From the NCBI GenBank assembly GCA_037144045.1, contig JBAWXN010000001.1, positions 1,387 to 65,386 of the forward strand: DNA of 64,000 nt, in the 5' to 3' direction. This DNA comes from a bacterium. Its GTDB lineage: Bacteria > Patescibacteriota > Minisyncoccia > Phycocordibacterales > UBA1006. The notes below the pieces were generated by a model. The model saw nothing but the letters and a program-made list of their open reading frames with translations, was not told the DNA's origin and searched no databases. Shown here piece by piece: positions 4,332 through 48,127 of the stretch (position 1 is the first letter of the stretch; every line of letters begins with the position of its first letter). Position numbers and translations under genes: made by a program.

Positions 4332-4340
4332 TGGTTCAAA

Positions 4341-4364
4341 AAACACCCGCGCGGGTGTTTTTTG
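4341..4364 (+). terminator. intrinsic terminator inside the r-protein cluster (cacccgcgcgggtg + TTTTTT)
   Basis: Perfect GC-rich palindrome 4344-4357 followed by a T6 tract, immediately after the rplW stop. Confidence 0.7.
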
Positions 4365-4382
4365 TTGAGAAAAAATTTAATA

Positions 4383-5958: not shown

Positions 5959-5975
5959 TTTGGTATTCACAAATC

Positions 5976-5996
5976 ATCCCTACGGGGATTTTTTGT
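5976..5996 (+). terminator. intrinsic terminator after rplB (atccc-tacg-gggat + T-run)
   Basis: hairpin followed by TTTTTTG. Confidence 0.6.
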
Positions 5997-7665: not shown

Positions 7666-7790
7666 TCTTAAGTTTTAAATGTTTGGTAATATAATTCTTA
7701 ATCATAATAACAGACTTATTAAAAAAGTCAAGTGAGTACAGGGTCTTTTAGAACGAGATTAACTATAGGTCGCATTTCCCAAGGAACCCC

Positions 7791-7819
7791 TTGACAAAAA
7801 AACTTAAAAATGCTTTAAT
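7791..7819 (+). promoter_or_regulatory. candidate promoter (TTGACA -17- TTTAAT) for the flotillin-like gene
   Basis: consensus -35 with a weak -10, about 190 nt upstream of the ATG at 8009 in the divergent intergenic region. Confidence 0.3.
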
Positions 7820-8008
7820 AGCCCGGAATGGTTCGTTGAACACTCGTGATTTTCTGTGCCTTATAGGTACACAAACTCACCGAACATGATTTACCGCTTG
7901 CTTTAGCAAGGTTCATCACTCAGGTAATCAGAGCTGATCACTCTTAGAAAATGGTCTGGTATCATTGCACCAGAAGCAATAAATCTTCAAAACATCAATT
8001 AATTTTAG

Positions 8009-10387: not shown

Positions 10388-10420
10388 GTTAATAATTGAA
10401 TACTAGTGCTCACGCACGGA

Positions 10421-10452
10421 CCCGTTCCAATTTGGAACGGGTTTTTTATTTT
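10421..10452 (+). terminator. intrinsic terminator after the flotillin-like gene (cccgttcc-aattt-ggaacggg + T-run)
   Basis: 8-bp stem then TTTTTTATTTT. Confidence 0.65.
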
Positions 10453-10460
10453 ATAACATG

Positions 10461-10496
10461 CAAAAAATAAACCCTGTCGCAATGACAGGGTTTTTG
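10461..10496. terminator. bidirectional intrinsic terminator (A-run, ccctgtc-gcaat-gacaggg, T-run)
   Basis: 7-bp stem flanked by AAAAAATAA upstream and TTTTT downstream; serves the convergent minus-strand gene ending at 10507. Confidence 0.6.
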
Positions 10497-10506
10497 GGTA
10501 ATTAAA

Positions 10507-15313: not shown

Positions 15314-15895
15314 ATGGAAACACTGAAACAAAAACAAGCAAGTGCCTATGATGTACTGAAAGCTCAATTCGGATACACTAATAAATTGGCAGCGCCTCGC
15401 ATCGAAAAAGTAGTAGTATCAGTTGGTACTGGTTCTGGAATGAAACGAGATCGCAACAAGAATGACTTCGTTATTGATCGTTTAACAAAAATTGTGGGTC
15501 AAAAGCCTTCAGTAAAATCTGCTAAACAATCAATTGCATCATTCAAAATTCGTCAAGGTGATCCAGTTGGAGTGGTAGTTACCCTTCGTGGTGAACGTAT
15601 GTGGTCATTCTTGGATAAATTGGTAAACGTGGCATTGCCTCGAACTAAGGACTTCCGAGGAATCACACGATCATCTGCGGGTGATCTTGGTAACATGACT
15701 ATCGGTATTCGTGAACATACGATCTTCCCAGAAACATCTGATGAAGAAATTTCACAAGTATTTGGTCTTGCTATCACTATCGTGACTACGGCAACTTCTC
15801 GACCAGAAGGTCTCGCATTCTTTGAATATCTTGGATTCCCTCTTAAGAAGGAAGACGAGAAAAAAGCAAAGCGAACTCGAAAACGAGGAAAATAA
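15314..15895 (+). CDS. rplE: 50S ribosomal protein L5
   Basis: LKQKQASAYDVLKAQFGYTN...PRIEKVVVSVG...FRGITRSSAGDLGNMTIGIREHTIFPE. Confidence 0.93.
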   Translation: METLKQKQASAYDVLKAQFGYTNKLAAPRIEKVVVSVGTGSGMKRDRNKNDFVIDRLTKIVGQKPSVKSAKQSIASFKIRQGDPVGVVVTLRGERMWSFLDKLVNVALPRTKDFRGITRSSAGDLGNMTIGIREHTIFPETSDEEISQVFGLAITIVTTATSRPEGLAFFEYLGFPLKKEDEKKAKRTRKRGK

Positions 15896-15902
15896 CAAAT
15901 TG

Positions 15903-15923
15903 CTACCGAAAGGTAGTTTTTTG
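15903..15923 (+). terminator. intrinsic terminator directly after rplE (ctacc-gaaa-ggtag + TTTTTT)
   Basis: tetraloop hairpin plus T6; ends the r-protein transcript before the rest of the spc genes would normally follow. Confidence 0.7.
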
Positions 15924-15952
15924 TTTTGGTAAATTTACGATATACTAGACTC

Positions 15953-18900
15953 ATGAAATTTTTTATACGAATCCTAATACTAGGAATGTTCTTTGTAACT
16001 GCTCACACTGCTTTTGCAGCTACTATTACCGTAAATACAACAACTCCTGGAATAGTAAGTGATGGAGAGTGTTCATTGTCAGAAGCGATTAATAACGTCA
16101 ATGGCAACAATGATACTTCAGGGGGAGATTGTGCATCCGGAGAAGCTCTCCCTGTTGTTGATCGTATCGAATTTGCAATTCCTGGTGCCGGTCCACACAC
16201 CATAGCAACCAATGCCCAGTTTGGGATTATGGAGGCTGTAGTTATTGATGGAACAACACAGCTAGGTACTGCGTGTCCTCTCGAAGGAGGACTGCGTCAG
16301 CTTCAGATTAACATTGACGGAGGGGGTATTTCTTCTTCGTCTAATATTTTTGATATTCCTCCTGGAGCAAACAACGTAACTATTAAGGGGTTAGCAATTT
16401 ATGGAAACGTATTTGGATCAGGTATTACTACGCAAGCAAACAATACTACGGTTCAATGTACAAACATCGGAACTGATAGTGATGGTTTAGTCGCGCATCC
16501 TAACTTGTATGGAATCAGTATTTATAATAACGGATTAGTGGCTACCTCTGGACATATATTTGGTGGTCCCAATCCGGGAGATGGAAATCTTGTCTCAGGT
16601 AATAACGTGACCAATTCAGGTAGTTTTTTTGACGGTACGGGTATTACTTGTTCGGCAAGTAATGTTTTGATTCAGGGAAACTGGATTGGAATTGATAGTA
16701 CGGGTCAGTCAATTCTAGCAAACAAAAATACAGGTATTCAGTGTGGTAATTCTGGTTCAGAGTTGATTACTTACGAGAATATTCAGATTCTCGACAATGT
16801 TATTTCTGGTAATGGAACAACGGGTGGTCAAAGTTTTTCTCCAGGTATTAATATTGGAGGTGCTGAAATTGGGGGAACCAACGAATTAATTACTAATTTG
16901 GTAATTAAAAGAAATATCATAGGTCTATCTGCTGATGGTTTGACTGCTATTCCCAATGAAGGCGATGGAATTTTTGTAGGAACTACTTCTTCTGCAGTGA
17001 CTATTGGTGGAATTGGTGATGGAAATATTCTTTCAGGGAACGGGGGGAACGGTTTAACATTGGGGTATGATGTTTCAAATATTCAGGTGCTAGGAAACAC
17101 TATCGGATTAAATGCTTTGGGTCTGGCCGCTATTCCTAATAGCCTGCAAGGTATTAGTTTTTCCCCACCCCTCTTTGTGGGTGGTGGTACTGTAACCAAT
17201 GTTACTATTGGAGGAACAAATATCGGAGAGGGAAATACGATTTCTTGCAACAACTCTGGCGGTATCAATATTCCTGCAAATACTAGTAATATCTCTATTA
17301 TCGGGAATACAATTGGTCCCAATAGTAGCGGACAGAATTGCGATACAGGATTACAAAGCGTTGGAATTTATGCTACTGGTACAACCAATCTTACTATTGA
17401 CGCTAACATAATTAAATATCGGTATCTAGCAATACGGATGTATGCACTTGGTGGTTCGTCCGCGATAAAAAATAATACTATTACAGACAACAATACGGGT
17501 ATTTCAATTGTTTCTTCTTCAACAGTCAATCCCATGGTGAGTGTTACGGGAAATAGTATTACAAATAATACTAATATGGGTATTGATCTTTCAATAGATG
17601 CGGACGACAATGGTGTCGGCGACAATATAGGAATTCAAAATACAAATGATATCAATGACACGGACAGTGGGCCAAATAATTATTTAAATCATCCTGTTGT
17701 TCTCATGACGTTACAAAATGGGGCAGATACGAGCGTCTTGTATGGGCTTGATGTCCCCGTGGGATACTATCGGGTAGAATTTTTCATCAACCCAACCAAC
17801 GGAGTAGATGCATCCGGATATGGAGAAGGAGAAGTATATAAAGGATTTTCAGTTATTACGAAATCAGCTTTGGGTTTTGAAACCTATAGCAAGATATTAA
17901 CGAATACAAATCTGAATGATGGTGTAACGGCGACAGTTACCGAATGTACTGATGCGTCTTGTACGAACTATATTGGCACTTCAGAATTTTCAAACACTGC
18001 ACCTCCAGGAGTTGACTACGATGCAACTGATTATACAGCGTCACACGTACTTAATACGGTTTACTTGGGTGCCTGTGTAAACGGTGATAATGGATCAAGT
18101 AGTAATACTGATGCCGATGGTCCCAATCAGGCTGGTGCGTATTTGGGTACGGGGCCGTGTATTGATGACCGAGATGGTGTAGTATTTGGTAGTTCGACTT
18201 CTGGTGGTATTACCCCAGCGTCAATATCTGGAGTCACTCTGTTTTCACAAGGTGGTGATTTTAGTGGAGCACTCAATGATATGACAGTTTCAGGAACATA
18301 TACGGGTGCGGATCATGTGAATGTGTTAGTTTTGATATTCTCTGTTTCTCCTGGGAATTCAGACGATGCAGATTATTTCCTTCCAGTGTTTAACATAGGA
18401 AGTGACTATTTAACTGGTTCTCCTACTAAAATTACTCCAGGAATTCCACAATCAATTGGATCAGGCGTATCTATCATGTTTCAAAATGGTACTGGTCACA
18501 CAGCATTTGATACTGGCTCAGGCACAGGTCCAGTTTTAGTTTTTAGTGCTAATAGTGAGAGCGAAGCATTTACTTTTACTCAAAATACGGGAACATTTCT
18601 TCCTGGAGCTACTACTGCTGTCCAAACTACCGCATCAGCAAATGGATATGTACATGTATGGTTAGATAGTAACAACGATGGCGATTTTCTAGACACGGGG
18701 GAACAGGTTGTTGAGAGTACTATCATAACTTCTGGAGAACATATTGTTAATTTTACTGCACCGATCCAGGCGGGAACCTATCCTGTACGGGTGCGGTATA
18801 CTTCATATGAAGATACCAATCTTGGTCCGACAGGACTTGCAAATGATGGTGAAGTAGAAGATTATCAACTTACGGTAGCTGTCCCGGTTTCTACTGCAGG

Positions 18901-19312
18901 AGGGTCTACGGGGTATCTTCCAAGGCTTGCATTTAAACCGGTTACAGTGCCGGCAGGTGTTTCATCAAATAATTCAGCAGAAGATATTTTGGGTTCAGGT
19001 ATCTGTTCAACAGAGCTTATTATTAAAGATCTTATGAAACAAGGAGATAGAAATGGTAAATATGGTGCTTATAATAAAAAAACAGTGAAAGACGTGAACC
19101 TTCTTCAAGTTCATATTAATCGAATACTTGCCGCCCAATACAACCAGGCAGCAGGTCCAACGGATGGAATTTTTGGAAAACTCACTAAGCGCGGGGTGGA
19201 ACGGTTGCAAACTGCACTCAATAGTTTCCTAAAGCCAGCACCAAAACTGAAAATAGATGGTGTTGTGGGTCCTTTTACTCGAGATGCGATTAATAATAGT
19301 TGTGGTAAATAA
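15953..19312 (+). CDS. giant secreted right-handed parallel beta-helix repeat protein with a GEVED domain and a C-terminal PG_binding_1-type peptidoglycan-binding domain
   Basis: Signal peptide MKFFIRILILGMFFVTAHTAFA. About 20 PbH1-like repeats (N..I.GN.IG.....G). ...DGEVEDYQLTV (GEVED motif). C-terminal LLQVHINRILAAQYNQAAGPTDGIFGKLTKRGVERLQ...IDGVVGPFTRDAIN resembles PG_binding_1. Confidence 0.7.
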   Translation: MKFFIRILILGMFFVTAHTAFAATITVNTTTPGIVSDGECSLSEAINNVNGNNDTSGGDCASGEALPVVDRIEFAIPGAGPHTIATNAQFGIMEAVVIDGTTQLGTACPLEGGLRQLQINIDGGGISSSSNIFDIPPGANNVTIKGLAIYGNVFGSGITTQANNTTVQCTNIGTDSDGLVAHPNLYGISIYNNGLVATSGHIFGGPNPGDGNLVSGNNVTNSGSFFDGTGITCSASNVLIQGNWIGIDSTGQSILANKNTGIQCGNSGSELITYENIQILDNVISGNGTTGGQSFSPGINIGGAEIGGTNELITNLVIKRNIIGLSADGLTAIPNEGDGIFVGTTSSAVTIGGIGDGNILSGNGGNGLTLGYDVSNIQVLGNTIGLNALGLAAIPNSLQGISFSPPLFVGGGTVTNVTIGGTNIGEGNTISCNNSGGINIPANTSNISIIGNTIGPNSSGQNCDTGLQSVGIYATGTTNLTIDANIIKYRYLAIRMYALGGSSAIKNNTITDNNTGISIVSSSTVNPMVSVTGNSITNNTNMGIDLSIDADDNGVGDNIGIQNTNDINDTDSGPNNYLNHPVVLMTLQNGADTSVLYGLDVPVGYYRVEFFINPTNGVDASGYGEGEVYKGFSVITKSALGFETYSKILTNTNLNDGVTATVTECTDASCTNYIGTSEFSNTAPPGVDYDATDYTASHVLNTVYLGACVNGDNGSSSNTDADGPNQAGAYLGTGPCIDDRDGVVFGSSTSGGITPASISGVTLFSQGGDFSGALNDMTVSGTYTGADHVNVLVLIFSVSPGNSDDADYFLPVFNIGSDYLTGSPTKITPGIPQSIGSGVSIMFQNGTGHTAFDTGSGTGPVLVFSANSESEAFTFTQNTGTFLPGATTAVQTTASANGYVHVWLDSNNDGDFLDTGEQVVESTIITSGEHIVNFTAPIQAGTYPVRVRYTSYEDTNLGPTGLANDGEVEDYQLTVAVPVSTAGGSTGYLPRLAFKPVTVPAGVSSNNSAEDILGSGICSTELIIKDLMKQGDRNGKYGAYNKKTVKDVNLLQVHINRILAAQYNQAAGPTDGIFGKLTKRGVERLQTALNSFLKPAPKLKIDGVVGPFTRDAINNSCGK

Positions 19313-19313
19313 A

Positions 19314-19333
19314 AAGCACCTACGGGTGTTTTT
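19314..19333 (+). terminator. intrinsic terminator (gcacc-tac-gggtg + TTTTTT)
   Basis: short GC hairpin plus T6 after the stop at 19312. Confidence 0.55.
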
Positions 19334-19392
19334 TGACTTACAGGAACGATTTTAGGTATAATAATCCTGTTTATCAAGATAACTAAAAAAAT

Positions 19393-20394
19393 ATGAAAGA
19401 AGCAATATCACTCGGTTCTGGTGCAGGAAACGAACAATTTAAACATACTCAAGACGGCAAAAAGTATTTATACGAAAAAGATGGTACTTTTTATGGAGGT
19501 GATTATATGGACGAACCACCGCAAGAACTTTTTATCGATGTTGGTTCGGCACCAGCAAGCCCTGCAAAATCATATCGCGAAATTGGTGCAGCTAACCGTG
19601 CAGCATTTAATGAAAAAATCGAGAAGAAAAAAACTTGGTTGAGTGGACTGTTTTCACGGTTTGGATCTAAAGTTAAAGATACTAAAGAATCAGCAATAGA
19701 TCATGCTTTTGCAACACGCCAGATGGCAGCTGATGGATATGAAGCAGTAGACAAGGGGATTCAAAAGATGGAAGACAAGATTGTATTTGGAAGTGAGGTT
19801 GCAGGTCGCGCAGCAGAACTTGCGGGTGCGTATGCAGCATACAAGGCCAAGGAAGGAATGGCTTCAGCTAACAAATTCATTGATAATCGTATTGTGAATC
19901 CTATTGATGCAAAAGTGCAAAAATTAGATGCGTACGTTGATAAAAAATGGGAACAAGGAAAAAACTATGCAGAACTTAAAAAACAACAAGGAGCTGCATG
20001 GATGAAAGACAAGGCGGAAACAGCTGCTGCAGTAGGAATTATTGGAGGATACATTGCAAAAGGGGTTGCAGGATCAATTAAAGAAGGATTCACTCAAAAA
20101 GTTGCAGAAGCGAAAGAAAAAGTTTCTCAAGGATATGAAAATGTTCTGGGAATGGGAGCTGCTGCTATTGCATCTGCTGAACAAAAACGAAAATCGTTGA
20201 TTTCTGGAGCGCGCGATAAATGGAACCAGATTCAACTCGGTTTCCTTAATCGACAACTTGCTAATGAACGAGCAAAAGCAGAAATGGCTCGAGAAGAACT
20301 CGAATCACGAGAAGCTAAAGCAAAGCTTATTGAACAAAAAATGGCACTTCTTAATACAGACTTCGTGGGGAATGCTCAGGAAGCAACTGCATAA
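19393..20394 (+). CDS. hypothetical Ala/Lys-rich helical protein
   Basis: long ORF with periodic A/K/E composition (apolipoprotein/LEA-like helices), no TM helices, no recognisable motif. Confidence 0.45.
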   Translation: MKEAISLGSGAGNEQFKHTQDGKKYLYEKDGTFYGGDYMDEPPQELFIDVGSAPASPAKSYREIGAANRAAFNEKIEKKKTWLSGLFSRFGSKVKDTKESAIDHAFATRQMAADGYEAVDKGIQKMEDKIVFGSEVAGRAAELAGAYAAYKAKEGMASANKFIDNRIVNPIDAKVQKLDAYVDKKWEQGKNYAELKKQQGAAWMKDKAETAAAVGIIGGYIAKGVAGSIKEGFTQKVAEAKEKVSQGYENVLGMGAAAIASAEQKRKSLISGARDKWNQIQLGFLNRQLANERAKAEMAREELESREAKAKLIEQKMALLNTDFVGNAQEATA

Positions 20395-20399
20395 TATAT

Positions 20400-20774
20400 A
20401 TGACAATACAAGAACTCATTCAAAAAATTACAGACAGTGTCCTTTCAGAAAGTGCTAAAAAGCAGATTATTGACCTTGCGGGTACTTATTCTGAAGTAAC
20501 TCCTGACCTTGAAGACCAGGTAAAAGCACTTATTCAAGAAGATATTGATCGCGACTTGGCTGCGCTTGGAGCTGACGAAAACAGTCCTGAAATTCAGGCA
20601 GTCCAAGCAGAACTCGAAGCTGGTTTGGCTGAAGTTGATGCTGAACTTGATCAAGATATGACCTATGTAGACCAAGAACTTAAAGAGCTTGATGCTATGC
20701 GCCTTGAAATTACTCGAGCCGAAGAAGCGCTTAAAATTGAACAATTACGGAATGATTTGACCGCTGGGTCATAA
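20400..20774 (+). CDS. hypothetical acidic coiled-coil protein
   Basis: 124 aa, very acidic, starts 6 nt after the upstream stop (likely co-transcribed). Confidence 0.4.
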   Translation: MTIQELIQKITDSVLSESAKKQIIDLAGTYSEVTPDLEDQVKALIQEDIDRDLAALGADENSPEIQAVQAELEAGLAEVDAELDQDMTYVDQELKELDAMRLEITRAEEALKIEQLRNDLTAGS

Positions 20775-21033: not shown

Positions 21034-21453
21034 ATGCCAACCGTAAACCAATTAGTACGTAATCGACGAAAAAAGGTATCTACCCGTTCAAAAGCGGTAG
21101 CTCTTCGACGTGGATTCAACGCACTTGAAAACCATCCTACTTTTAACCCATCTCCATTCAAACGAGGAGTATGTACTAAAGTAACTACAACAACCCCTAA
21201 GAAGCCTAACTCTGCGGTTCGAAAGATTGCACGTGTTCGGTTAACGAACGGAATGGAAGTTACTGCATACATCCCAGGAATTGGACACAACCTCCAGGAA
21301 CACTCTGTGGTTATGATCCGAGGTGGACGTGTAAAGGACTTGATCGGGGTACGTTATACCGTAGTTCGAGGAGTTCTCGACGCGCAAGGAGTAGCTAAAC
21401 GAGCAAATGGTCGATCACGATACGGAGTTAAACGACCTAAGGCGGCTAAATAA
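21034..21453 (+). CDS. rpsL: 30S ribosomal protein S12
   Basis: [14 protein letters not shown]...PKKPNSA(V)RK(I)ARVRLTNG...KDLIGVRY S12 signature. Confidence 0.95.
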
Positions 21454-21464
21454 GCTGAAAATAT

Positions 21465-21935
21465 ATGCGAAGAAAAGTAACCAATCGAAATATTCCTAAA
21501 CCAGACTCAGTATACGGATCTGCTAAACTTGCAAAGTTTACTAACGTAGTAATGTGGGATGGTAAAAAGGAAACCGCTCAAAAAATCATTAATGACGCTT
21601 TCAAAGTAATCAAGGAGAAAACAGAAACTGAAAACCCTCTTGAAATCTTCGAATTAGCTCTTAAAAACGCTGGTCCAACTGTAGAAGTACGATCACGACG
21701 AATCGGTGGTGCAAACTACCAAGTTCCTCGAGATGTACGTCCAGAACGACGACTTGCGCTTGCAACACGATGGATTATTGAAGCAGCTCGCTTGAAAAAG
21801 GGAGCACCAATGCACATTAAACTTGCTGATGAATTAATTGCAGCTTCAAAAAATGAAGGTTCTGCAGTTACTAAGCGAGACAACACCCACAAAATGGCAG
21901 AAGCTAACAAAGCATTTGCACACTTTACGTGGTAA
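21465..21935 (+). CDS. rpsG: 30S ribosomal protein S7
   Basis: position after rpsL; VMWDGKKETAQKIINDAF...VEVRSRRIGGANYQVP. Confidence 0.93.
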   Translation: MRRKVTNRNIPKPDSVYGSAKLAKFTNVVMWDGKKETAQKIINDAFKVIKEKTETENPLEIFELALKNAGPTVEVRSRRIGGANYQVPRDVRPERRLALATRWIIEAARLKKGAPMHIKLADELIAASKNEGSAVTKRDNTHKMAEANKAFAHFTW

Positions 21936-21944
21936 TGGAATAAA

Positions 21945-21967
21945 GTCCTCATGCGAGGGCTTTTTTC
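21945..21967 (+). terminator. intrinsic terminator between rpsG and fusA (gtcctc-atgc-gagggc + TTTTTT)
   Basis: 6-bp stem (one G.U) with tetraloop and T6. Confidence 0.55.
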
Positions 21968-22047
21968 TTGCAAAAATGCCTTTTTTACGGTACAGTGGTT
22001 GTCTTATTAGAGATTTTCAGGCCCGAATTATTACTTAAATTATACTT

Positions 22048-24198
22048 ATGAACCGAGATTACCCATTGGAAAAGACACGAAACTTTGGAGTTATTGCCCA
22101 CATCGATGCGGGTAAAACAACTACTTCAGAACGTATTTTGTTCTACACCGGAATGTCCCACAAAATTGGAGAAGTGCATGAAGGTGCAGCAACCATGGAC
22201 TGGATGGAACAAGAAAAAGAACGAGGAATTACTATTACGTCAGCAGCGACGACTTGTTTTTGGACGCCTACTTATGTGGCAGACAAAAAAGACACTGCTA
22301 AAAAATTCCGATTTAACGTAATCGATACCCCAGGTCACATCGACTTTACTATTGAAGTACGACGATCACTCCGCGTGCTCGACGGTGCTCTCGTAGTATT
22401 CGACGGAGTAGCTGGAGTAGAACCTCAATCAGAAACTAACTGGCGTTATGCCGATGAAGGAAAAGTTCCTCGCATTTGTTTCATTAACAAACTCGACCGA
22501 ACAGGAGCTTCATTTGAACGTTCATACGCATCTATTCTTGATCGTTTGACTAAAAGTGCGGTTCGATTCCAAATTCCAATTGGTGAAGAAGAAAAAATGG
22601 AAGGAGTAGTAGATCTTTTGAAAATGAAGGCGTACTATTTCGAAGGAAACATGGGAACTGATGTGATTGAAAAAGAAATCCCTGAAAATCTTAAAGCTGA
22701 TGCTGAAAAGTATCATGCAATCCTCGTTGAAAAAATCGTTGAACACGATGAAACTATGATGATGGAATTCCTTGATGGGAAAACAGATTTCGATATTGAA
22801 GCTCTTAAAAAAGTAGCTCGAAAAGCAACCATTGCGAACGATATTGTTCCTGTATTTGCAGGAACAGCGCTTAAAAATAAAGGGGTACAACTTGCACTCG
22901 ATGCGGTGGTAGATTATTTGCCAGCACCGACAGATTTGAAAGATAACAAAGGGGTTAATCCAGATACTGGAGCAGAAGAAACCCGAAAAGCATCAGATAA
23001 TGAACCGCTTTCTGCGCTTGCCTTTAAAATTGCAACGGACCCATTCGTAGGACAATTGGTATTCTTCCGTGTCTATTCAGGTACGCTTGAAGCAGGTTCA
23101 TATGTGTTAAACACTCGAACAGGTAACAAGGAACGTATTGGACGTATTTTGCGAATGCATGCCAACGAACGTGAAGAAGTGAAAAAGGTGTTTGCAGGGG
23201 AAATTGCTGCAGCAGTAGGACTTAAAGAAACTACTACTTCAGACACGCTCTGTGACCCAGCTCACCCAATCGTTCTCGAAGAAATCAAGATTCCAGAACC
23301 AGTAGTAAGTCTTAAGATTGAACCAAAAACAAAGGCAGACCAAGAAAAAATGGGTATGGCTTTGAACCGATTGGCAGCAGAAGACCCAACCTTCCGAGTA
23401 ACTACTGATCCTGAAACTGCAGATACTATTATCTGGGGAATGGGAGAACTTCACTTGGATATTATTGTGGATCGTATGAAGCGAGAATTTACCGTTGAAG
23501 CAAACGTGGGACGACCACAAGTAGCTTACAAGGAAACCATTACGGGAACTGCTGAAGTGGATAACAAATATGTTAAACAATCAGGAGGTAAAGGACAGTA
23601 CGGTCATGTTAAAATCCGTATCAAGCCTATGGACCTTACGGTAGATCCAGCTGATCTTCCTAAGAACACGAAGCGTTCAGAAGGATTTGAATTCATCAAC
23701 AACATTAAAGGAGGGGTTATTCCACAAGAATTTATCGCTCCTGTTGAAAAGGGATTGAAAGAAGGAATGCAGCGAGGTGTCCTTGCTGGATACCAAATGG
23801 TAAACATTTCAGCGGACTTGTTTGATGGGTCATACCACGATGTAGACTCAAGTGAAATTGCCTTTAAGGTTGCAGCGTCACAAGCAATGCAAGAAGCGCT
23901 TGCGAAAGCGTCTCCGGTTATCCTTGAACCGATGATGAAAGTTGAAGTAACCATCCCAGAAAAATTCTTGGGAGATATTACCGGAAACGTATCATCTAAA
24001 CGTGGAATGATTGAAGGGGTAGACGATCGAGGAATGGTGAAAGCGGTTCGTGCGATTATGCCACTTTCAGAAATGTTCGGATATATGAACTCACTTCGAT
24101 CAATGACCGAAGGACGAGGATCATTCACTATGGAATTTACCCGTTATGACATCGTTCCTAAGAACGTTGCTGACGAAATTATTTCAAAGCGAAAATAA
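22048..24198 (+). CDS. fusA: elongation factor G
   Basis: [20 protein letters not shown]...DTPGHIDF...NKLDR G-domain plus full-length EF-G domains II-V. Confidence 0.95.
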
Positions 24199-24268
24199 TC
24201 CTGCCTCGCGTAAAGCTACGCAGGACACAAAATTTCCCATTGGGGGATTTTTTGTTACACTTATAAAT

Positions 24269-26656
24269 ATGACATTTGGTCGGAAAACTCTTTTTTCTGT
24301 TATTACGATTCTTTCAATCATTGGATATGGTTTTGTAGTTTTTGCGGTGGCACCAGTTGGAGGATATACTCCTGCTCAAACATTAAATCCTGCATGTGCA
24401 CCAGGTGATATTGATTGTGTGGTTCAAATGGCGGTAGTCATTGGGTCTTCTGTGATAAGCGGAATGCCGAATCAGGTGCTCTATACTGATACGGATGGTA
24501 AGGTTTTTGGTGATTCACAATTTACTCGTGACTCGACAACAGGAAATACAATTATTGGTGTGGCAAATGGGGTAGTTGCTTCGAATATGAGTATTTTGAA
24601 TACAGGGAATGTGCTCACTTGGGACGCAGATGTGAATGATTCAATCACAGATGGACTCATTCAAGGAAATAACCTAAATGGAGTTGGGATAAAAGGAAGT
24701 GCATTGGCTCATAGCAATACATCAACTTTTGAGTCAGCATCTTTCTTTGCTGGAGACACTACTGCTGTTGGTGGTAATCCATATGAAGCAAGTATGGCTT
24801 ATGTTCTTCCAGGAGGAATCAACGGGGCTTTTGCATATACTGTTAATGAAGAAGGATTAAAAGCAGACTACTATGATAGTGTAGGAAATATCAAAAGTCA
24901 GATTCTTCAAGAGGCAACAGGAAACACTATTTTATGGGATGCGGATACTACAGATGATATACAAGACTTGTTTGCGCAAAACCAAAACATTGGAGGTTCA
25001 CCCTTCAAAGGAAATGGTATTGCCCATGTTAATACAGCTACAGGAGAAAATGTTTATTTAGGAATTGGTGACGCAAGTGGTGTTGGGCAACGTCCTTTTA
25101 CAGGAATCATTGGATATCAAAATGCTGGTGGTACTCTTTTAAATGCATTAAGAGTGGATGATAGAGGTGCTGTAATAAGTCATCGTGACAGTGTTGCGAA
25201 TACGCAAGGATTCATGACCACATTTGGAGGTGGGAACCTGTCAGTTTGGAAGGCTGACACAACTGACACGATAATTACAAAACTTGAACAGACACAAGAC
25301 ATATTAGGACTTGGTGCTTTCTCAGGATCGGCTCTCACTTGGCAAGATACAGGTACTCAAGTAACAGGACTGGTGGGTGCTGTTGATGGAACTGGAACTG
25401 GACTTTTCCCGGGAAGTACTATTATGGCAACAACTAATGATGCATCTCTTGCGTCAGCAAGCCTTTCTACAAATTATGATACGTTAAGCTTGCAAGCAAC
25501 ACTTATAGCAAATGTTGCTAATGGGCCTGGTGATACAGGATTTGAGTTTGATAGGACGCGGGGAATTATTCGACGTAGAGACTACGGAACAGGTTTTGAG
25601 TCAGCATTTGAAGTTAATGGAAATAATGCGATCGCAAAATATACACTTAACGGTACCAATGAATACCAGACACAACTGGGTGATGGTACGTTCGCATTCC
25701 TGAATACAACTACAAATGATAAGTATCTATCGCTGGATTCAGTGTCAGGAATCATGAAGATAGCGCCACCAACAGGAGGAGATTTCGAAGTTAATACACT
25801 TACAACGAACAAAGTCGCATTTACAGTAATTCCTGATAACTTCTATGTGAAAATGGGAGATGGTGATAATGTTGCAAATCATACGTCATTGACAGTAGAC
25901 GACGCTTCACAAGCAATTACATTTGGTTATACTGGAAGTAGTTATACTTTCCCAGTTGGTGACGGTACTACTAACTACCTTCTTGCAACGGATGGCACAG
26001 GACAACTTTTCTGGCAAGATCCAACGATGGTCCCATCGGATCGATCACTCAAATCAAACATAGGTGGATTGTCGTATGGACTTGATACGTTAATGCAATT
26101 AAATCCAGTGTCTTATACCATGAATTCAAGTGGTAAAGAACAAATTGGATTCATTGCCCAAGAAGTAGAATCGTTAGTGCCAGAGCTGGTAGGGGAAGTT
26201 GCAAATGGTAAGAAAGGATTAGCCTACGGACAGATGACAGCAGTGATTGTAAAATCAGTTCAGCAGCTCAATTTGAAAATAGTCAACATTGAAAACTTTG
26301 CTGACGCTGAAAACAAAACATTCTTGAATAATTTGATTGCGTGGTTAGGTAGTGCAGCTAACGGTCTCGGAAAATTATTTGCCGGTGAAGTAGAAACAAA
26401 AAAACTTTGTATTGCTGACGATACAGGGAGTACTACGTGTATTACTAAATCACAGTTAGACGAATTTCTTACTCATCAAAATAATAGTCCAGGATCGAGT
26501 GTTGCACCTATTCCGCCTTTGGATAATCAGGGTGACAACTCGATACCAGTTCCAGGTCCAGATTTAGTATCTGATTCAGTACCAGAAACAGGACCAGGTC
26601 CACTACCTGTCGCACCAGATCCAATATCTGATCCGGTAATTGAAGAGGTTAATTAA
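24269..26656 (+). CDS. secreted fibre-like protein with a conserved N-terminal module and a C-terminal Peptidase_S74 / intramolecular chaperone (CIMCD-like) domain and Pro-rich tail
   Basis: Signal peptide ...IGYGFVVFA|VAPVGGYTPAQTLNPACAPGDIDCVV. C-terminal DRSLKSNIGGLSYGLDTLMQLNPVSYTMNSSGKEQIGFIAQEVESLVPELV (Ser/Lys dyad context) then WLGSAANGLGKLFAG..KKLCIADDTGSTTCITKSQLDEFL. Start chosen at ATG 24269; the ORF-track start 24146 overlaps the fusA 3' end. Confidence 0.7.
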   Translation: MTFGRKTLFSVITILSIIGYGFVVFAVAPVGGYTPAQTLNPACAPGDIDCVVQMAVVIGSSVISGMPNQVLYTDTDGKVFGDSQFTRDSTTGNTIIGVANGVVASNMSILNTGNVLTWDADVNDSITDGLIQGNNLNGVGIKGSALAHSNTSTFESASFFAGDTTAVGGNPYEASMAYVLPGGINGAFAYTVNEEGLKADYYDSVGNIKSQILQEATGNTILWDADTTDDIQDLFAQNQNIGGSPFKGNGIAHVNTATGENVYLGIGDASGVGQRPFTGIIGYQNAGGTLLNALRVDDRGAVISHRDSVANTQGFMTTFGGGNLSVWKADTTDTIITKLEQTQDILGLGAFSGSALTWQDTGTQVTGLVGAVDGTGTGLFPGSTIMATTNDASLASASLSTNYDTLSLQATLIANVANGPGDTGFEFDRTRGIIRRRDYGTGFESAFEVNGNNAIAKYTLNGTNEYQTQLGDGTFAFLNTTTNDKYLSLDSVSGIMKIAPPTGGDFEVNTLTTNKVAFTVIPDNFYVKMGDGDNVANHTSLTVDDASQAITFGYTGSSYTFPVGDGTTNYLLATDGTGQLFWQDPTMVPSDRSLKSNIGGLSYGLDTLMQLNPVSYTMNSSGKEQIGFIAQEVESLVPELVGEVANGKKGLAYGQMTAVIVKSVQQLNLKIVNIENFADAENKTFLNNLIAWLGSAANGLGKLFAGEVETKKLCIADDTGSTTCITKSQLDEFLTHQNNSPGSSVAPIPPLDNQGDNSIPVPGPDLVSDSVPETGPGPLPVAPDPISDPVIEEVN

Positions 26657-26693
26657 TAACTTACATGTAGCGTGCCTTTAAAACAATAAAAAA

Positions 26694-26720
26694 CCAAACG
26701 CTCTTGCGCTTGGTTTTTTA
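26694..26720 (+). terminator. intrinsic terminator (ccaaacgc-tctt-gcgcttgg + TTTTTT)
   Basis: 8-bp stem (one mismatch) plus T6. Confidence 0.55.
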
Positions 26721-26739
26721 TATATGTTAGTATGATTAT

Positions 26740-28272
26740 GTGAAAATTCTAAAAAACAAAAAATTAGCAGTCGCAATGAGTATTGCATCTGTAATCGGTT
26801 ATGGAACACTTGCTTTTGCAGTTGCGCCAGTAGGGGGATACATTCCAGGTCAAACCCTTAATCCTACGTGTACTCCTGGAAGTACAGACTGTTCAGTTGC
26901 ATCAGCGTGGAGTATTGATACGGTGAATGAACTAATTAGTAATAATTTTAATAACATAACCATAGCGGGAAATACAGAGTTACTTGGAAACACAACATCC
27001 CTGAATGAATTTTCAGGCTCACGCTTTGGCATAATTCAAAATGGACCCAGCACAACTCTTGGAACAAGTGCTTTTGAGAACGGGCTTAACTTACGTTTTA
27101 TTGACGATCAGAAATCAGCTGGTATTTTTATGGGTGATTTAAGTGGACTCCTTCCTGGTAATACGAATACTATTTATATAAATAATACTAACGATGCTAC
27201 CGGTGATTCTGCATATGCATTTTTTAATGCAGATGGTAGTCTCATGCTCGCAGCCCAAGATGCAAACAAGCATTCAAATATTAATGTTTTTAAACAAGGT
27301 TTCAGACTTCGTCATGCAGGTGGTCCGGATAGTAGTCCAACGGGTGATTGGCATTCCCGAATAGATATAGAAGACAATCGAGTGCTAAGTACGTTTCAGA
27401 GAGGTGGTGGTACTGATCCAGGAGTAACACTCACTACTTGGACAGAGACACAATTAGATGAAAACGGGTTTGCTATAAAAGGAATTGATGATAGTGGCCT
27501 CAATCAAGCGTTTTTAGTTAAAAATAACACTGGATTACAAGCGTTGCGTGTCATGAACGATGGTGCGGTACGTATCGGAGCCCTTGCTGGAGGCATCTGC
27601 CCACTCGAGGTAGATGTGACGGGTACTATTATTTGTAGTACTCCTTCCGATGCAAATCTTAAGCATGATATTACTGATTTATCCTATGGACTTGATACTA
27701 TTATGAAACTGCGACCGGTTTCGTATCAGTATAACGATGCAAAATACGGATCAGGAAACCAGATTGGTTTCGTGGCTCAAGAAGTTCAAGAAGTTATTCC
27801 GGAAGTAGTATTCAGAAGTCAGGGACACTTGGGAATTAACTATGCATTACTTACATCAGTTAACACAAAGGCGATTCAAGAACTTGAACTAAGGCTCACA
27901 GCTCTCGAAGGGGTTGCACAGTCAGTTAACAGTTCAGGACTCTCGCTGATTCGTAATTGGTTAGCAGATGCAACCAATGGAATTACAGAAATTATTGCTG
28001 GAAAAATATCTACTCATGAATTATGTATAGATGGACAATGTCTCACAAAAGACGATGTGCAGCAATTACTCATATTAAAAAATCAATTACAGAATACCGA
28101 ATCCATCCCTCCGAGTAGTGCCAGTACTCCAGTAGAAACCCCAAGTCCTGCTGATGTGCTGCCAGAGGTGGTACTAACTACCGAAAGTTCAACCGAAATA
28201 ACACCAGACGAGGGAGTAACTCCCGATGCTACACCAGAAACAGGTACGAGCAGTGATACGGTAGCGAATTAA
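26740..28272 (+). CDS. paralogous secreted fibre-like protein with the same N-terminal module and a C-terminal Peptidase_S74 chaperone domain
   Basis: ...IGYGTLAFA|VAPVGGYIPGQTLNPTCTPGSTDCSV. C-terminal SDANLKHDITDLSYGLDTIMKLRPVSYQYNDAKYGSGNQIGFVAQEVQEVIPEVV then NWLADATNGITEIIAG...CIDGQCLTKDDVQQL and a Pro/Thr-rich tail. Confidence 0.7.
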   Translation: MKILKNKKLAVAMSIASVIGYGTLAFAVAPVGGYIPGQTLNPTCTPGSTDCSVASAWSIDTVNELISNNFNNITIAGNTELLGNTTSLNEFSGSRFGIIQNGPSTTLGTSAFENGLNLRFIDDQKSAGIFMGDLSGLLPGNTNTIYINNTNDATGDSAYAFFNADGSLMLAAQDANKHSNINVFKQGFRLRHAGGPDSSPTGDWHSRIDIEDNRVLSTFQRGGGTDPGVTLTTWTETQLDENGFAIKGIDDSGLNQAFLVKNNTGLQALRVMNDGAVRIGALAGGICPLEVDVTGTIICSTPSDANLKHDITDLSYGLDTIMKLRPVSYQYNDAKYGSGNQIGFVAQEVQEVIPEVVFRSQGHLGINYALLTSVNTKAIQELELRLTALEGVAQSVNSSGLSLIRNWLADATNGITEIIAGKISTHELCIDGQCLTKDDVQQLLILKNQLQNTESIPPSSASTPVETPSPADVLPEVVLTTESSTEITPDEGVTPDATPETGTSSDTVAN

Positions 28273-29120: not shown

Positions 29121-29687
29121 ATGCAATCACTAGAAAGTGGCGTCTATTATTCATTTGGCCCTAAGAGTTTCATTGCAAAAATAGTGCAAGGGCTTATTGC
29201 TCCTGTTGCTATTTTGCTGTTAACCGCCGGTGCATTTTTCATTCAAGACACTGCTTTTGCAGTCATGGTTGAATCGTTTATTAAATTAAACCTGGTTGCG
29301 GTTCTGGTTTCATCAGGGGTAATCCTTGCCGTATTAGTTGCCCTCGCACAACTTATTGTTGCTTGGCTGTATTATCGCAATACACATTTTATGATTAGTG
29401 ATAATGCGTTGTATATTCGCACAGGAATCATTCAGCGCAATGAAATAAGTATTCCATTGCGACATATTAATAATATCCTTCAGCAACAGAGCATTACCGA
29501 TCGTATGTTTCAAGTGTGTACCTGTACTATTGAAATTCAAGAAGACGAAGTGTCACAAACGGCAGGTACTCCTACTTCGTCTGATAATGTAGTACTGTAT
29601 CAACTCGATTTGGAATATGCTACACCACTGCGTGAATTACTGCTCAGTCGTTCAAATACGCAACGTATGGTTATGGTAACTAAATAA
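29121..29687 (+). CDS. membrane-flanked bacterial PH domain (bPH_2, YdbS/YdbT-like) protein
   Basis: two TM helices then RNTHFMISDNALYIRTGIIQRNEISIPLRHINNI...; start at ATG 29121 (ATG 29085 lies inside the upstream terminator). Confidence 0.55.
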   Translation: MQSLESGVYYSFGPKSFIAKIVQGLIAPVAILLLTAGAFFIQDTAFAVMVESFIKLNLVAVLVSSGVILAVLVALAQLIVAWLYYRNTHFMISDNALYIRTGIIQRNEISIPLRHINNILQQQSITDRMFQVCTCTIEIQEDEVSQTAGTPTSSDNVVLYQLDLEYATPLRELLLSRSNTQRMVMVTK

Positions 29688-29708
29688 ACCGCTCGGCGGT
29701 TTTTTTAT
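29688..29708. terminator. bidirectional intrinsic terminator between convergent genes (accgc-tcg-gcggt, A-run / T-run)
   Basis: GC hairpin flanked by AAATAAA and TTTTTTT. Confidence 0.6.
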
Positions 29709-38486: not shown

Positions 38487-38930
38487 ATGAAAAAAAATAT
38501 CTTACAAAAAGGATTTACATTGATCGAACTCCTCGTGGTAGTAGCTATTATTGCTATCCTCTCAGGAACGATCTTGGTAGCGCTTAACAGTGCTCGTGCA
38601 AAAGCGAAAGACGCGCGTATTCAAGCAGAATTGCAACAATTGAAATCGCAAATGGAATTGTATTACACGAGTAATAATAATGGGTATGGATCAGCAACAG
38701 ACTGTACTTCTGGTACCGGTAATCCATTTACTTCTACAGGTGGGACGAACAACGCAGCTACTTTAATTACAGGTCTCGAAATAGATAATGGGTCTGCTTC
38801 ACTAAGTTGTCAAGCAAGCTCAGCTAGTTGGGCTGTTTCATCTCCGTTATCATCAGCAAGTTCAACTTGGTGCGTAGATTCAAATGGAAAATCAAATACA
38901 GGTACCGCTACTGGAGGTTCATGTATCTAA
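38487..38930 (+). CDS. type IV major pilin paralog 1 (class III signal peptide)
   Basis: MKKNILQKG|FTLIELLVVVAIIAILSG... prepilin leader, cleavage after Gly, Glu+5; C-terminal Cys pair. Confidence 0.85.
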   Translation: MKKNILQKGFTLIELLVVVAIIAILSGTILVALNSARAKAKDARIQAELQQLKSQMELYYTSNNNGYGSATDCTSGTGNPFTSTGGTNNAATLITGLEIDNGSASLSCQASSASWAVSSPLSSASSTWCVDSNGKSNTGTATGGSCI

Positions 38931-38985
38931 ACAACTAACTGCTTCGGCGGTTTTTGTTTTAGATAAAACGGGTTATACTACGGTT

Positions 38986-39471
38986 ATGAAAAAAATCTCG
39001 GCAGGGTTTACCTTAATTGAATTACTGGTAGTGGTTGCAATTATTGCGATATTATCAGGAACAATACTGGTTGCTCTGAACAGTGCTCGTACAAAAGCAA
39101 AAGAAGCACGTATTCAAGCTGAAATGCAGCAATTAAAATCACAAATGGAGCTCTACTACACAACAAATGGTGGTTATGGTTCAACCAGTGGGGATTGTAC
39201 GACAGGTGCTTTTGCAAACGGTACTGATAATCCTTCAACGCTTATTAATGGCCTTACTCTAGATATTTGTGGAGCGCTAGGATACTGCAATAAATTAGCT
39301 TGTTATTCAGGTACTGATTGGTGGGTAACTGCGGTGCAAATGCCTAGTGGTTCAACTACGTGGTGTGCGGATTCTAATGGAGCTTCAAAACCTGGAGTAG
39401 ATTCCAATGGAGCACCAAGCGCATCACCATTGTGGGTAATTTCAAACACTCCTAATAAATACTGCTGGTAG
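38986..39471 (+). CDS. type IV major pilin paralog 2
   Basis: MKKISAG|FTLIELLVVVAIIAILSGTILVALNSARTKAKEARIQ...; start at ATG 38986 (the ORF-track start 38884 overlaps pilin 1). Confidence 0.85.
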   Translation: MKKISAGFTLIELLVVVAIIAILSGTILVALNSARTKAKEARIQAEMQQLKSQMELYYTTNGGYGSTSGDCTTGAFANGTDNPSTLINGLTLDICGALGYCNKLACYSGTDWWVTAVQMPSGSTTWCADSNGASKPGVDSNGAPSASPLWVISNTPNKYCW

Positions 39472-39503
39472 CAGTTTTTTTAGTGACTTGGTATACTACA
39501 TAC

Positions 39504-40004
39504 ATGAAAAAAGCCTCAGGATTTACATTGATCGAGCTCCTCGTGGTAGTAGCTATTATTGCTATTCTCTCAGGAACGATCTTGGTAGCACTGAACAGTG
39601 CTCGTGCAAAAGCGAAAGACGCGCGTATTCAATCCCAGTTACAACAAATAAAAGCTCAAGCAGAACTCTATTATACGAACCATGGCAATGCGTATTCAAC
39701 CTACTGGTCAACCTTCACCGGAAACACGGAATCGTTATGTGGAACAGCTGGATATGGGGTGTTTGATGCAACTGATCCGGATTCATCATTTAGGCTTTTG
39801 AAAGACGCAGTCTATGAATACGATGGGCAATGGAATGGTGGTGCTGGGTGGTGTTTCCTAGGCGCAGGAGGGGAAAGTTGGATGGCGCTTGCCGCATTAC
39901 ATTCAGGGGGATATTGGTGCGTAGATTCCAATGGGTCTTCTAAAAATTTTACAGGAAATCCTTGGTCTATTACCTATACTGGGGGTCAAATAAATTGTCC
40001 TTAA
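39504..40004 (+). CDS. type IV major pilin paralog 3
   Basis: MKKASG|FTLIELLVVVAIIAILSGTILVALNSARAKAKDARIQ...; N-terminal 110 nt are about 96 percent identical to paralog 1. Confidence 0.85.
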   Translation: MKKASGFTLIELLVVVAIIAILSGTILVALNSARAKAKDARIQSQLQQIKAQAELYYTNHGNAYSTYWSTFTGNTESLCGTAGYGVFDATDPDSSFRLLKDAVYEYDGQWNGGAGWCFLGAGGESWMALAALHSGGYWCVDSNGSSKNFTGNPWSITYTGGQINCP

Positions 40005-48079: not shown

Positions 48080-48099
48080 AACATAGATATAACAAAAAA

Positions 48100-48120
48100 C
48101 TACCCTGCGGTAGTTTTTTG
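48100..48120 (+). terminator. intrinsic terminator (ctacc-ctgc-ggtag + TTTTTT)
   Basis: tetraloop hairpin plus T6. Confidence 0.6.
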
Positions 48121-48127
48121 TTTCTTG

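Follow-up and report, generated by a model that had tools for sequence, protein, structure and literature searches.

The S74 peptidase domain, also called the C-terminal intramolecular chaperone domain (CIMCD), forms a trimer, acts as a template on which the triple beta-helix or fibre upstream of it folds, and afterwards cuts itself off at a serine, as in the K1F endosialidase and in T5 pb1. In Bdellovibrio bacteriovorus the family of MAT (mosaic adhesive trimeric) fibres has been described, which includes an S74 subgroup exemplified by Bd3182 (Caulton et al. 2024, PMC10769870). MAT fibres begin with a signal peptide, and their N-domain is invariant and believed to bind the surface of the predator; they are trimeric fibres of ~1000 aa with swapped tips, and 13 of the 21 members end in an S74 domain with the motif SDxxxK (PMC10769870). 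They are located on the surface and have a role in prey recognition and handling; self-cleavage was shown experimentally and is blocked by the S782A replacement (PMC10769870). Here we describe three related genes in a stretch of 64,000 nucleotides (the window) from a bacterium of the Patescibacteria or Candidate Phyla Radiation (CPR; assembly GCA_037144045.1, contig JBAWXN010000001.1, positions 1,387 to 65,386 of the forward strand). Two complete genes and the 3′ part of a third very probably encode exported, cell-encoded S74 fibres.

The closest characterised system is the Bdellovibrio MAT family, to which the CPR fibres are similar on paper without being members of it. In both, the genes are chromosomal, the signal peptide leads directly into a conserved module, and a long variable fibre is combined with an S74 domain bearing the SDxxxK motif. 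There are many paralogues with different tips (three in the window, arrays of two or three in relatives), and conserved ends flank variable centres. The proposed logic is the same: the N-terminus would sit on the cell, and autoproteolysis would uncover the tip. Bdellovibrio lives on other bacteria. The differences lie mainly at the two ends. The MAT N-domain is beta-rich and comprises ~130 aa, whereas the CPR proteins have a ~30-aa Cys-loop module, and by the description of the MAT family this sets the two apart. MAT fibres end in S74, whereas in the CPR fibres S74 is followed by a ~45-aa module and a 55–180-aa acidic tail rich in Pro, Thr and Ser. The CPR envelope is probably monoderm, not diderm.

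An earlier note on this DNA, made from the letters and a list of open reading frames (ORFs), had described three paralogous fibre genes with conserved ends. The three ORFs are present as described there, and alignment and tblastn agree that they form one paralogous family. Their parts are as follows (cleavage sites are predicted; AF2, AlphaFold2; HMM, hidden Markov model; pLDDT, predicted local distance difference test).

24269–26656, + strand: fibre gene 1, complete coding sequence, 795 aa (ORF; PF13884 at residues 590–641, E 1.6e-13; matches to C-termini of PHROG tail fibres)
24269–24346, + strand: gene 1 signal peptide MTFGRKTLFSVITILSIIGYGFVVFA, followed by VAP; predicted signal peptidase I site after Ala26 (sequence features)
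24347–24433, + strand: gene 1 N-module VAPVGGYTPAQTLNPACAPGDIDCVV, Cys43–Cys50 loop (common to gene 2, E 2.5e-17; family HMM)
24434–26035, + strand: gene 1 variable shaft and tip, residues 56–589 (no similarity to gene 2)
26036–26335, + strand: gene 1 CIMCD/Peptidase_S74, predicted cleavage at Ser590 (codon 26036–26038), Lys595 (Pfam, alignments)
26336–26473, + strand: gene 1 CPR tail module AWLGSAANGLGKLF…CIADDTGSTTCITKSQLDEFL, Cys714/Cys724 (three-way and family alignments)
26474–26653, + strand: gene 1 acidic, Pro-rich low-complexity end, 60 aa, 23% Pro (composition)
26686–26721, no strand: 16-bp hairpin between genes 1 and 2 with A/T runs on both sides, resembling a bidirectional intrinsic terminator (sequence)
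26740–28272, + strand: fibre gene 2, complete coding sequence, 510 aa, GTG start (ORF; PF13884 at residues 303–357, E 1.9e-18)
26740–26820, + strand: gene 2 signal peptide MKILKNKKLAVAMSIASVIGYGTLAFA, followed by VAP (sequence features; AF2 helix at residues 7–20)
26821–26907, + strand: gene 2 N-module, Cys44–Cys51 loop (alignment with gene 1; family HMM)
26908–27645, + strand: gene 2 variable shaft and tip, residues 57–302, beta-rich; a Cys287/Cys299 loop immediately precedes the cleavage site (orphan; AF2)
27646–27951, + strand: gene 2 CIMCD/Peptidase_S74, predicted cleavage at Ser303 (27646–27648), Lys308 (Pfam, profile, AF2)
27952–28095, + strand: gene 2 CPR tail module, W407…C429-x4-C434…LL, comprising a helix, a disulfide-type beta-hairpin and a helix (alignment, AF2)
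28096–28269, + strand: gene 2 acidic, Thr/Pro/Ser-rich disordered end (pLDDT below 50; composition)
1–714, + strand: fibre gene 3, truncated at the 5′ end, with 237 codons and the stop remaining (ORF; PF13884, E 9.3e-16; PHROG)
82–384, + strand: gene 3 CIMCD, Ser28 (82–84), Lys33
385–528, + strand: gene 3 tail module
529–711, + strand: gene 3 Pro-rich end

The automatic gene caller had placed the starts at 24146 for gene 1, with a 53-nt overlap with fusA, and at 26776 for gene 2, which drops the basic n-region. The starts of the earlier note (ATG 24269 and GTG 26740) were preferred because only these yield a basic n-region, an h-region and a (V/A)-F-A site, and because the N-termini of homologues agree (e.g. 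'MFFGRK…'). A Logan contig encodes a protein identical to the gene 2 product from residue 13 on.

The S74 domain carries the identification. PF13884 (Peptidase_S74, 'chaperone of endosialidase') was found in all three proteins, as the note had proposed, with 51–67 bits against a gathering score of 22; all three likewise resemble numerous PHROG tail-fibre families at their C-terminal ends. In the three-way alignment S-D-x-x-L-K is invariant, and the core reads LSYGLD…PV.Y…IGF.AQ….P..V. A single-sequence phmmer search of PDB with gene 2 gave nothing, and for this reason a profile of the subfamily, made from the C-terminal region of 11 members, was searched against all PDB sequences. This profile matched the phage tail fibre 8jov (1e-13), the S16 long tail fibre 6f45 (1e-11), human and mouse MYRF ICA (7dc3, 5e-8), the T5 L-shaped fibre pb1 (8hqz, 2e-7) and phi29 gp12 (3gud, 2e-3). 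In every PDB alignment the serine and the lysine five residues after it are in register, and the Ser-Lys dyad is thus intact. The motifs of the window genes (SDRSLK, SDANLK and SDENLK) align with SDERLK of 8jov, SDRRIK of 6f45, (S→A)DLRAK of MYRF 7dc3 and SGIEYK of T5; Ser and Lys are invariant across the family alignments. The SDxxxK motif is the same as in Bd3182, which cleaves experimentally.

Structure prediction gave a consistent picture for this domain. In the monomeric AF2 model of the domain pLDDT was 80–93 across the CIMCD, and in the gene 2 model it was 88–97. Foldseek comparison of the domain model with PDB found MYRF 7dc3 as the best match (E 5e-5, prob 1.0, TM-score 0.57–0.65, root mean square deviation 2.8 Å over 125 columns), followed by phi29 3gud (prob 0.97) and the endosialidase 3gw6 (prob 0.84). 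The domain is a bona fide member of the S74/CIMCD superfamily; from its dyad and its modelled fold it looks catalytically competent.

The relation to phage fibres and tailspikes (K1F endosialidase 3GW6, T5 pb1 4UW8/8HQZ, phi29 gp12 3GUD, S16 6F45) consists of a homologous CIMCD with an aligned dyad and a similar fold, a weak similarity of the shafts, and mosaic evolution with conserved ends and variable centres. In contrast to the CPR proteins, the phage proteins lack a signal peptide, assemble in the cytoplasm onto the virion, carry an N-terminal virion-attachment domain, and are encoded in a phage genome context. In phage proteins the CIMCD is the extreme C-terminus, ~95–110 aa from the serine, as in typical S74 fibres, compared with 206–244 aa in CPR. 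The distance is 206–210 aa in the window genes and 208–283 aa in the closest database relatives; in the window genes ~100 extra residues, the conserved module and a disordered tail, follow the CIMCD. The CPR fibres are not phage tail fibres in the sense of a virion component. MYRF ICA (7DC3) is a cellular, non-viral use of S74, in which the sequence also continues C-terminal of the domain. MYRF is a membrane-anchored transcription factor with a C-terminal transmembrane helix, whose cleavage sends the N-terminal trimer to the nucleus, whereas the CPR fibres have no transmembrane helix and are predicted to be extracytoplasmic.

The N-terminal ends of genes 1 and 2, to which this comparison applies since the 5′ end of gene 3 lies beyond the window, share a Sec-type signal peptide and the block VAPVGGY(T/I)PxQTLNPxCxPGxxDCxV (tblastn within the window, E 2.5e-17), as had been noticed before. 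The signal peptide of gene 1 has a basic n-region, a hydropathy maximum (KD19) of 2.34 at residues 9–27 and a V-F-A motif. Signal-peptide-like N-termini were seen in 33 of 45 complete ORFs of the family, and most of the exceptions are masked or probably mis-started. The N-module comprises ~30 aa with a single Cys loop; an HMM of signal peptide and N-module matched more than 20 complete members from several CPR lineages, always at the N-terminus. It had no match in Pfam, NCBIfam, PDB or PHROG. Paired cysteines are present in every conserved module. The fibre genes encode no lipobox, no sortase signal and no C-terminal transmembrane segment: after the serine the KD19 maximum is at most 1.06, and the only sortase-like string is a stray VPETG in gene 1, without a hydrophobic segment after it.

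A second N-terminal class, a signal peptide followed by '…P.MLNYQGRL…', occurs in loci L032, L034, L056 and L059 and in the proteins P0030, P0033, P0034 and P0055. It is common to giant CPR tail-module proteins and to secreted S74 proteins of Bacteroidota-like organisms, and hints at a broader superfamily of cell-encoded S74 fibres. The secreted S74 proteins of Bacteroidota and other phyla (P0019, P0025, P0030–34, P0040, P0052 and others) are cell-encoded, with a signal peptide and a '…YQG…' N-module; the resemblance extends to those CPR members that have the 'MLNYQGRL'-type N-terminus and to those Bacteroidota-type proteins in which a sorting domain follows S74. They differ in lacking the CPR N-module and tail module, and their C-terminal extension, where present, is a type IX secretion system C-terminal domain (PF18962). 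Since secreted S74 proteins are also found in Bacteroidota-like sequences, cellular S74 fibres are therefore widespread, though almost unstudied.

The further conserved tail, W(L/F)..A.NG…C…C.TK, is common to all three window genes (tblastn E 3e-8 and 7e-7; invariant alignment columns), and the Pro-rich end that had been noted after it is present as an acidic stretch of ~55–60 aa rich in P, S, T and V. The tail module comprises ~45 aa, W[LF]ADAxNGI…C-x4-C-[LV]TKDD..LL, with a Cys loop of 9 residues instead of 4 in gene 1. Family-wide, 67 of 80 cases have a spacer of 4 residues between the cysteines, and the sequence continues with (L/V/I)-T-K-(D/E)-D-φ-x-x-L-L. In the AF2 model the long chaperone helix is prolonged into the module, which continues with a beta-hairpin closed by the two cysteines and a second helix; pLDDT of hairpin and helix was ~80 in a run with 42 sequences, and lower in a run with 11. 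The stretch behind the module is 80 aa long in the median (P 18%, T 16%, S 11%, E 10%, A 9%, D 7%); the Pro-rich segment has a weak TonB-spacer match (E 0.007), and the far C-terminal ends are not conserved in the alignment. The module has no match in Pfam or NCBIfam, a tail-only profile reached only E > 0.6 against PDB, and the same profile found six short fragments in an index of 5.8 billion proteins.

Tail modules without recognisable S74 were found in large proteins of 783–2675 aa (L007, L026, L034, L044, L056 and L066). In these the module and the Pro-rich end form the C-terminal ~150 aa, often after coiled-coil-like 'ASTT…' segments. Because the module is also present on large proteins without S74, the tail appears to be an independent, CPR-specific C-terminal module of secreted or surface proteins.

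The centres of genes 1 and 2 have no detectable mutual similarity (tblastn), in agreement with the divergence stated in the earlier note. When the 89 family ORFs described below were queried, the C-terminal block matched 85–89, the N-module 17–18, the gene 1 centre 4 (partially) and the gene 2 centre none. A filter-free HMMER search of 1.84e9 representative proteins with the gene 2 centre returned only itself and one weak match (E 3e-4). The gene 1 shaft contains three repeats of ~105 aa (residues ~86–400, z = 8–18 against shuffles). The gene 2 shaft is modelled as beta strands at low to moderate pLDDT and has weak matches to PHROG tail-fibre shafts (phrog_1980, phrog_1699). The shafts of two close relatives (P0002, P0007) contain YadA-head adhesin repeats (PF05658). 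YadA trimeric autotransporters are likewise trimeric fibre adhesins; the CPR fibres differ from them in having no C-terminal beta-barrel translocator, trimerisation relying on the S74 chaperone.

Replacement of the centre can be followed between two near-identical genomes, L036 and L043, whose EF-Tu proteins are 99.0% and L2 proteins 97.5% identical. Each has a 1362-aa member (L036:4464–8552 and L043:4443–8549) on the same strand inside the S10 operon, between rplB and rpsS, with spacers of ~60–100 nt. The DNA flanking the fibre gene is collinear at 93% and 90%, whereas within the gene collinearity is lost at about residue 54, directly behind the N-module that follows the signal peptide, and is absent until about residue 1145, approximately at the chaperone; within this centre only off-diagonal segments of 65–75% identity are left. 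The pattern is mosaic and cassette-like, as in phage receptor-binding proteins. Diversification by a diversity-generating retroelement was also considered and was rejected: the window ORFs contain no reverse transcriptase domain, and no repeat of the template/variable type involves the fibre genes.

The distribution of the family was assessed with a five-sequence tail-only alignment in one genome per GTDB species. There were at least 174 confirmed tail-module sites, of which the best 80 were analysed in detail. Nearly all of these 80 are in metagenome-assembled genomes (MAGs) of Paceibacterota/Parcubacteria lineages (Nomura-, Kaiser-, Zambryski-, Yonath-, Vogel-, Adler-, Giovannoni- and Harrisonbacteria) or Minisyncoccia, or in MAGs labelled 'Saccharibacteria'; the exceptions are one 'Nanoarchaeia' MAG and a few with generic 'bacterium' labels. 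The 80 loci contain 89 ORFs with a tail module, and S74 is directly upstream of it in 78. The ORFs range from ~580 to >2800 aa, and tandem arrays of two or three paralogues are common; in the window, tblastn with the modules found no copies beyond the three. The same scan of 2.9 million viral contigs (IMG/VR) gave a single marginal match of 17 residues, in a giant-virus MAG. The view that the fibres are cell-encoded is therefore strongly supported: they are found across the Patescibacteria, among housekeeping genes, and are virtually absent from viral contigs. NCBI labels one relative a 'tail fiber domain-containing protein', and in the literature we found no paper describing S74 fibres in CPR bacteria.

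The giant-virus match lies in a 487-aa ORF (L081:6600–8063; IMGVR GVMAG-M-3300023172-18) whose last residues, KELCIDDQCLTKDDIKKLKDL, reproduce the Cys-hairpin core of the tail module almost perfectly. Repeats of the type 'NILCG.G..LCSYLP…IRPGK' precede it, and S74 and the Pro-rich tail are absent; the copy could be due to transfer, mis-binning or convergence. The two MAGs with the replaced fibre centre, L036 and L043, are labelled 'Candidatus Saccharibacteria' (TPA) and 'Candidatus Paceibacterota' despite their 99% identical EF-Tu, and for this reason the many TPA labels 'uncultured Candidatus Saccharibacteria' among the matches are unreliable. The window organism is more probably a CPR bacterium of the Paceibacterota/Parcubacteria type; its closest relative is CAYYES01, with 93% identical EF-G.

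In the window the fibre genes stand among housekeeping genes. Domain searches found no capsid, terminase, portal, integrase, sheath, tube or baseplate gene in the whole 64 kb, which upholds the statement that phage genes do not flank them and places the genes outside any prophage within this distance; GC content is flat, the fibre genes being uniform with their surroundings. The window begins with gene 3, followed by EF-Tu-S10-L3-L4-L23-(MazF)-L2, a 6-kb insert, S19-L22-S3-L16…, a gene for a 1128-aa GEVED/beta-helix/peptidoglycan-binding protein, and S12-S7-EF-G. Then come genes 1 and 2, SIMPL, bPH and ComF. A complete type IV pilus cluster (PilMNO, PilB, PilT, PilC, PilD and about eight pilins) lies downstream, and after it LigA, GatA, RadC, tRNAs, RF2, GyrA, RNase HII and NusB.

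The 91 genes immediately flanking family members at the 80 loci have 112 Pfam families, mostly of housekeeping functions, with Toprim (5) and PemK/MazF (4) at the top; there is no phage gene among them. SIMPL/DUF541 adjoins the fibres only in the window and in the closest relatives (L001, L015), which is probably inherited synteny. A general link to the type IV pilus cluster was considered and rejected, as only one locus (L033) has a pilin neighbour. MazF homologues lie immediately downstream of fibre genes at L013:2629–3012, L025:2116–2595 and L080:1354–1737; in the window a MazF/PemK toxin gene (4362–4802) lies between L23 and L2 in the S10 operon. Fibres recur in or beside ribosomal clusters (L036, L043, L030, L073 and L001), and other relatives lie just upstream of S12 or downstream of fusA, so that genes for surface fibres have entered, more than once, the gene cluster that is the most conserved in bacteria. 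By a rough estimate this association applies to ~6 of the 80 loci against ~4 expected for such small genomes, and is not clearly above chance.

In the window the canonical order S12-S7-fusA-tuf-S10 is broken exactly between fusA and tuf, and fibre paralogues stand at both ends of the break (1–2089 and 21034–28272). Gene 3 immediately precedes tuf, and genes 1 and 2 immediately follow fusA; the tuf-S10 block lies upstream of S12 on the same strand. The broken order may be a rearrangement by recombination between the fibre paralogues.

Each fibre gene is probably transcribed as a unit of its own: a strong hairpin with flanking A/T runs lies between genes 1 and 2, and there is a weak terminator-like hairpin behind fusA. 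A promoter scan was at background level (11 found, 13.4 expected), and Rfam gave no RNA element near the fibre genes. A family of mutually similar hairpins, GC stems with A-runs and T-runs resembling bidirectional intrinsic terminators, follows many genes of the window, also inside the ribosomal clusters (4332–4364, 5963–5995, 15892–15926, 19303–19335, 29674–29706 and 48088–48123).

Several other features of the window were recorded. The ~6-kb insert between rplB and rpsS (6064–12303) contains two orphan minus-strand ORFs of 533 and 598 aa, without Pfam or NCBIfam match, and a 792-aa SPFH/Band-7 protein whose N-terminal region consists of 222-nt tandem repeats (8378–8860). The region 15926–20774 encodes the 1128-aa protein, with a right-handed beta-helix, GEVED and peptidoglycan-binding parts, and orphan ORFs of 333 and 124 aa; it is another large surface protein within the ribosomal gene region, between the S10/spc-type genes and S12. 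In the pilus cluster three consecutive pilin genes (38487–40004) have a common 178-nt 5′ repeat of 74–85% identity. They are recent paralogues, in which the N-terminal methylation/transmembrane segment is conserved and the globular parts are divergent. In the RF2-like gene (52742–53617), which has PCRF and RF-1 domains, the match to the PCRF profile starts only at position 85; this would fit the programmed +1 frameshift that is usual in prfB, or a wrongly set start.

The explanation we favour is that the three genes encode paralogous chromosomal surface fibres, built on the plan of phage tail fibres and adapted for export. The preproteins would be exported by the Sec pathway, the signal peptide being cut after (V/A)-F-A, as suggested by the sequence. 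Outside the membrane the S74/CIMCD domain, acting as is known for its family, would join three chains and template the folding of the shaft from the C- to the N-terminus. After trimer formation the Ser-Lys dyad would cut at Ser590, Ser303 or, in the gene 3 fragment, Ser28. The cut would discard a pro-fragment of constant size (206–210 aa), composed of the CIMCD, the CPR helix/Cys-hairpin/helix module and the acidic, Pro/Thr/Ser-rich disordered tail, and would expose the distal tip. By analogy with phage and Bdellovibrio MAT fibres, the N-terminal Cys-loop module would remain cell-proximal and dock the fibre to an element of the envelope, and the hypervariable shaft and tip would bind ligands on the surface of a partner or host. 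Paralogues and cassette-like replacement would supply changing specificity. We infer host or partner recognition by analogy, and the replacement of the shaft between near-identical genomes strengthens it. The tail module would most probably act before or during export or assembly, either retaining the protein at the surface of a wall-less-periplasm cell or nucleating or capping a trimeric helical bundle. This role is proposed with low confidence and is the weakest step of the mechanism, because the module is C-terminal to the cleavage site, yet also present on proteins without S74. Taken as a whole, this adhesin and maturation model is somewhat favoured, at clearly lower confidence than the exported S74 fibres themselves.

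A number of observations weigh against it. On the proteins without S74 the tail module would not be removed, and its role as a discarded pro-region is uncertain for this reason. The N-module is carried by only part of the family, and no conserved gene that could supply a docking partner was found among the 91 neighbours. The shaft and the N-module were poorly modelled (pLDDT 35–70), and Foldseek comparison of the whole-chain AF2 model with PDB gave only matches with E ≥ 0.02, among them OspA-like single-layer sheets and T4 gp34 at noise level. The signal peptides were assessed by eye and from hydropathy.

That the genes are prophage remnants, or encode fibres or spikes of a tailocin or an extracellular contractile injection system, would explain the S74 domain, the weak similarity of the shaft to PHROG tail-fibre families and the predominance of phage fibres among the PDB relatives. 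Particle and integrase genes are nevertheless missing from the 64 kb and from the surroundings of the 80 related loci, and GC content is uniform with the surroundings. The 2.9 million viral contigs are practically devoid of the N- and tail modules, which are specific to CPR, and a Sec signal peptide is incompatible with particle assembly in the cytoplasm. This explanation is largely refuted and in our view very improbable; the tailocin-like spike, which the earlier note had offered as an alternative, falls with it for lack of sheath, tube and baseplate genes and because of the signal peptide.

Two other explanations accept export and assign the fibres a different task, and we consider both unlikely. 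The proteins could be abundant structural fibres of the envelope, a fuzzy coat or an S-layer-like array, whose variability serves escape from phages or predators rather than partner recognition. They are secreted, acidic and rich in G, N, S and T; hypervariability is equally typical of exposed structural surface proteins, and the repeated position in or beside ribosomal-protein operons suggests high, growth-coupled expression, although this position, as estimated above, is not clearly above chance. The plan of an S74-assisted trimeric fibre and the YadA-head repeats of relatives are typical of adhesins and receptor-binding proteins, not of lattice S-layers, and several divergent paralogues per genome fit a recognition repertoire better. 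Alternatively, as in MYRF, whose domain frees a trimer from a membrane anchor and is the best structural match, the tail and the Pro-rich segment could tether the nascent protein in the wall until S74 cleavage, dependent on trimerisation, frees a soluble trimer; this could be a lectin, a depolymerase or a toxin, set free in the medium or delivered to the host. The tail module occurs generally on secreted CPR proteins, also without S74, as an anchor or retention signal would be expected to do; the Pro-rich segments resemble wall- or periplasm-spanning spacers, and S74 domains often accompany tailspike depolymerases. Yet the part behind the cleavage site contains no transmembrane segment, sortase motif or known wall-binding domain, the far ends are not conserved, Pfam detected no glycosidase or lyase family in the centres, and the conserved N-module would be left without an obvious role.

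A central question on the ultrasmall CPR bacteria, still open, is by what means they recognise a host and attach to it; the literature so far points to type IV pili and a few lectin-like proteins (PMC10633639, PMC12206443). The fibre family provides concrete, lineage-wide candidates: secreted, phage-fibre-like proteins with a built-in switch for assembly and maturation, present as several divergent paralogues per small genome. The concept has precedent, and what is new is the lineage-specific architecture with an internal chaperone. By it the cellular use of S74, previously MYRF and Bdellovibrio MAT, is extended to a third major lineage. The two undescribed modules, the N-terminal Cys loop and the C-terminal helix-hairpin-helix with its acidic tail, could enter domain databases, and their profiles could annotate many 'hypothetical' surface proteins of CPR. 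A further-reaching proposal, which we regard as rather doubtful, is that phage-derived, self-processing fibres are the main determinant of host and partner specificity in CPR, that is, cellular 'receptor-binding proteins' with cassette-swapped shafts and tips, and that the tail module with the acidic Pro-rich tail is a hitherto unrecognised sorting or retention signal for both the S74 fibres and the giant surface proteins without S74. If the fibres are indeed host-range determinants, fibre typing could predict CPR–host pairings from metagenomes.

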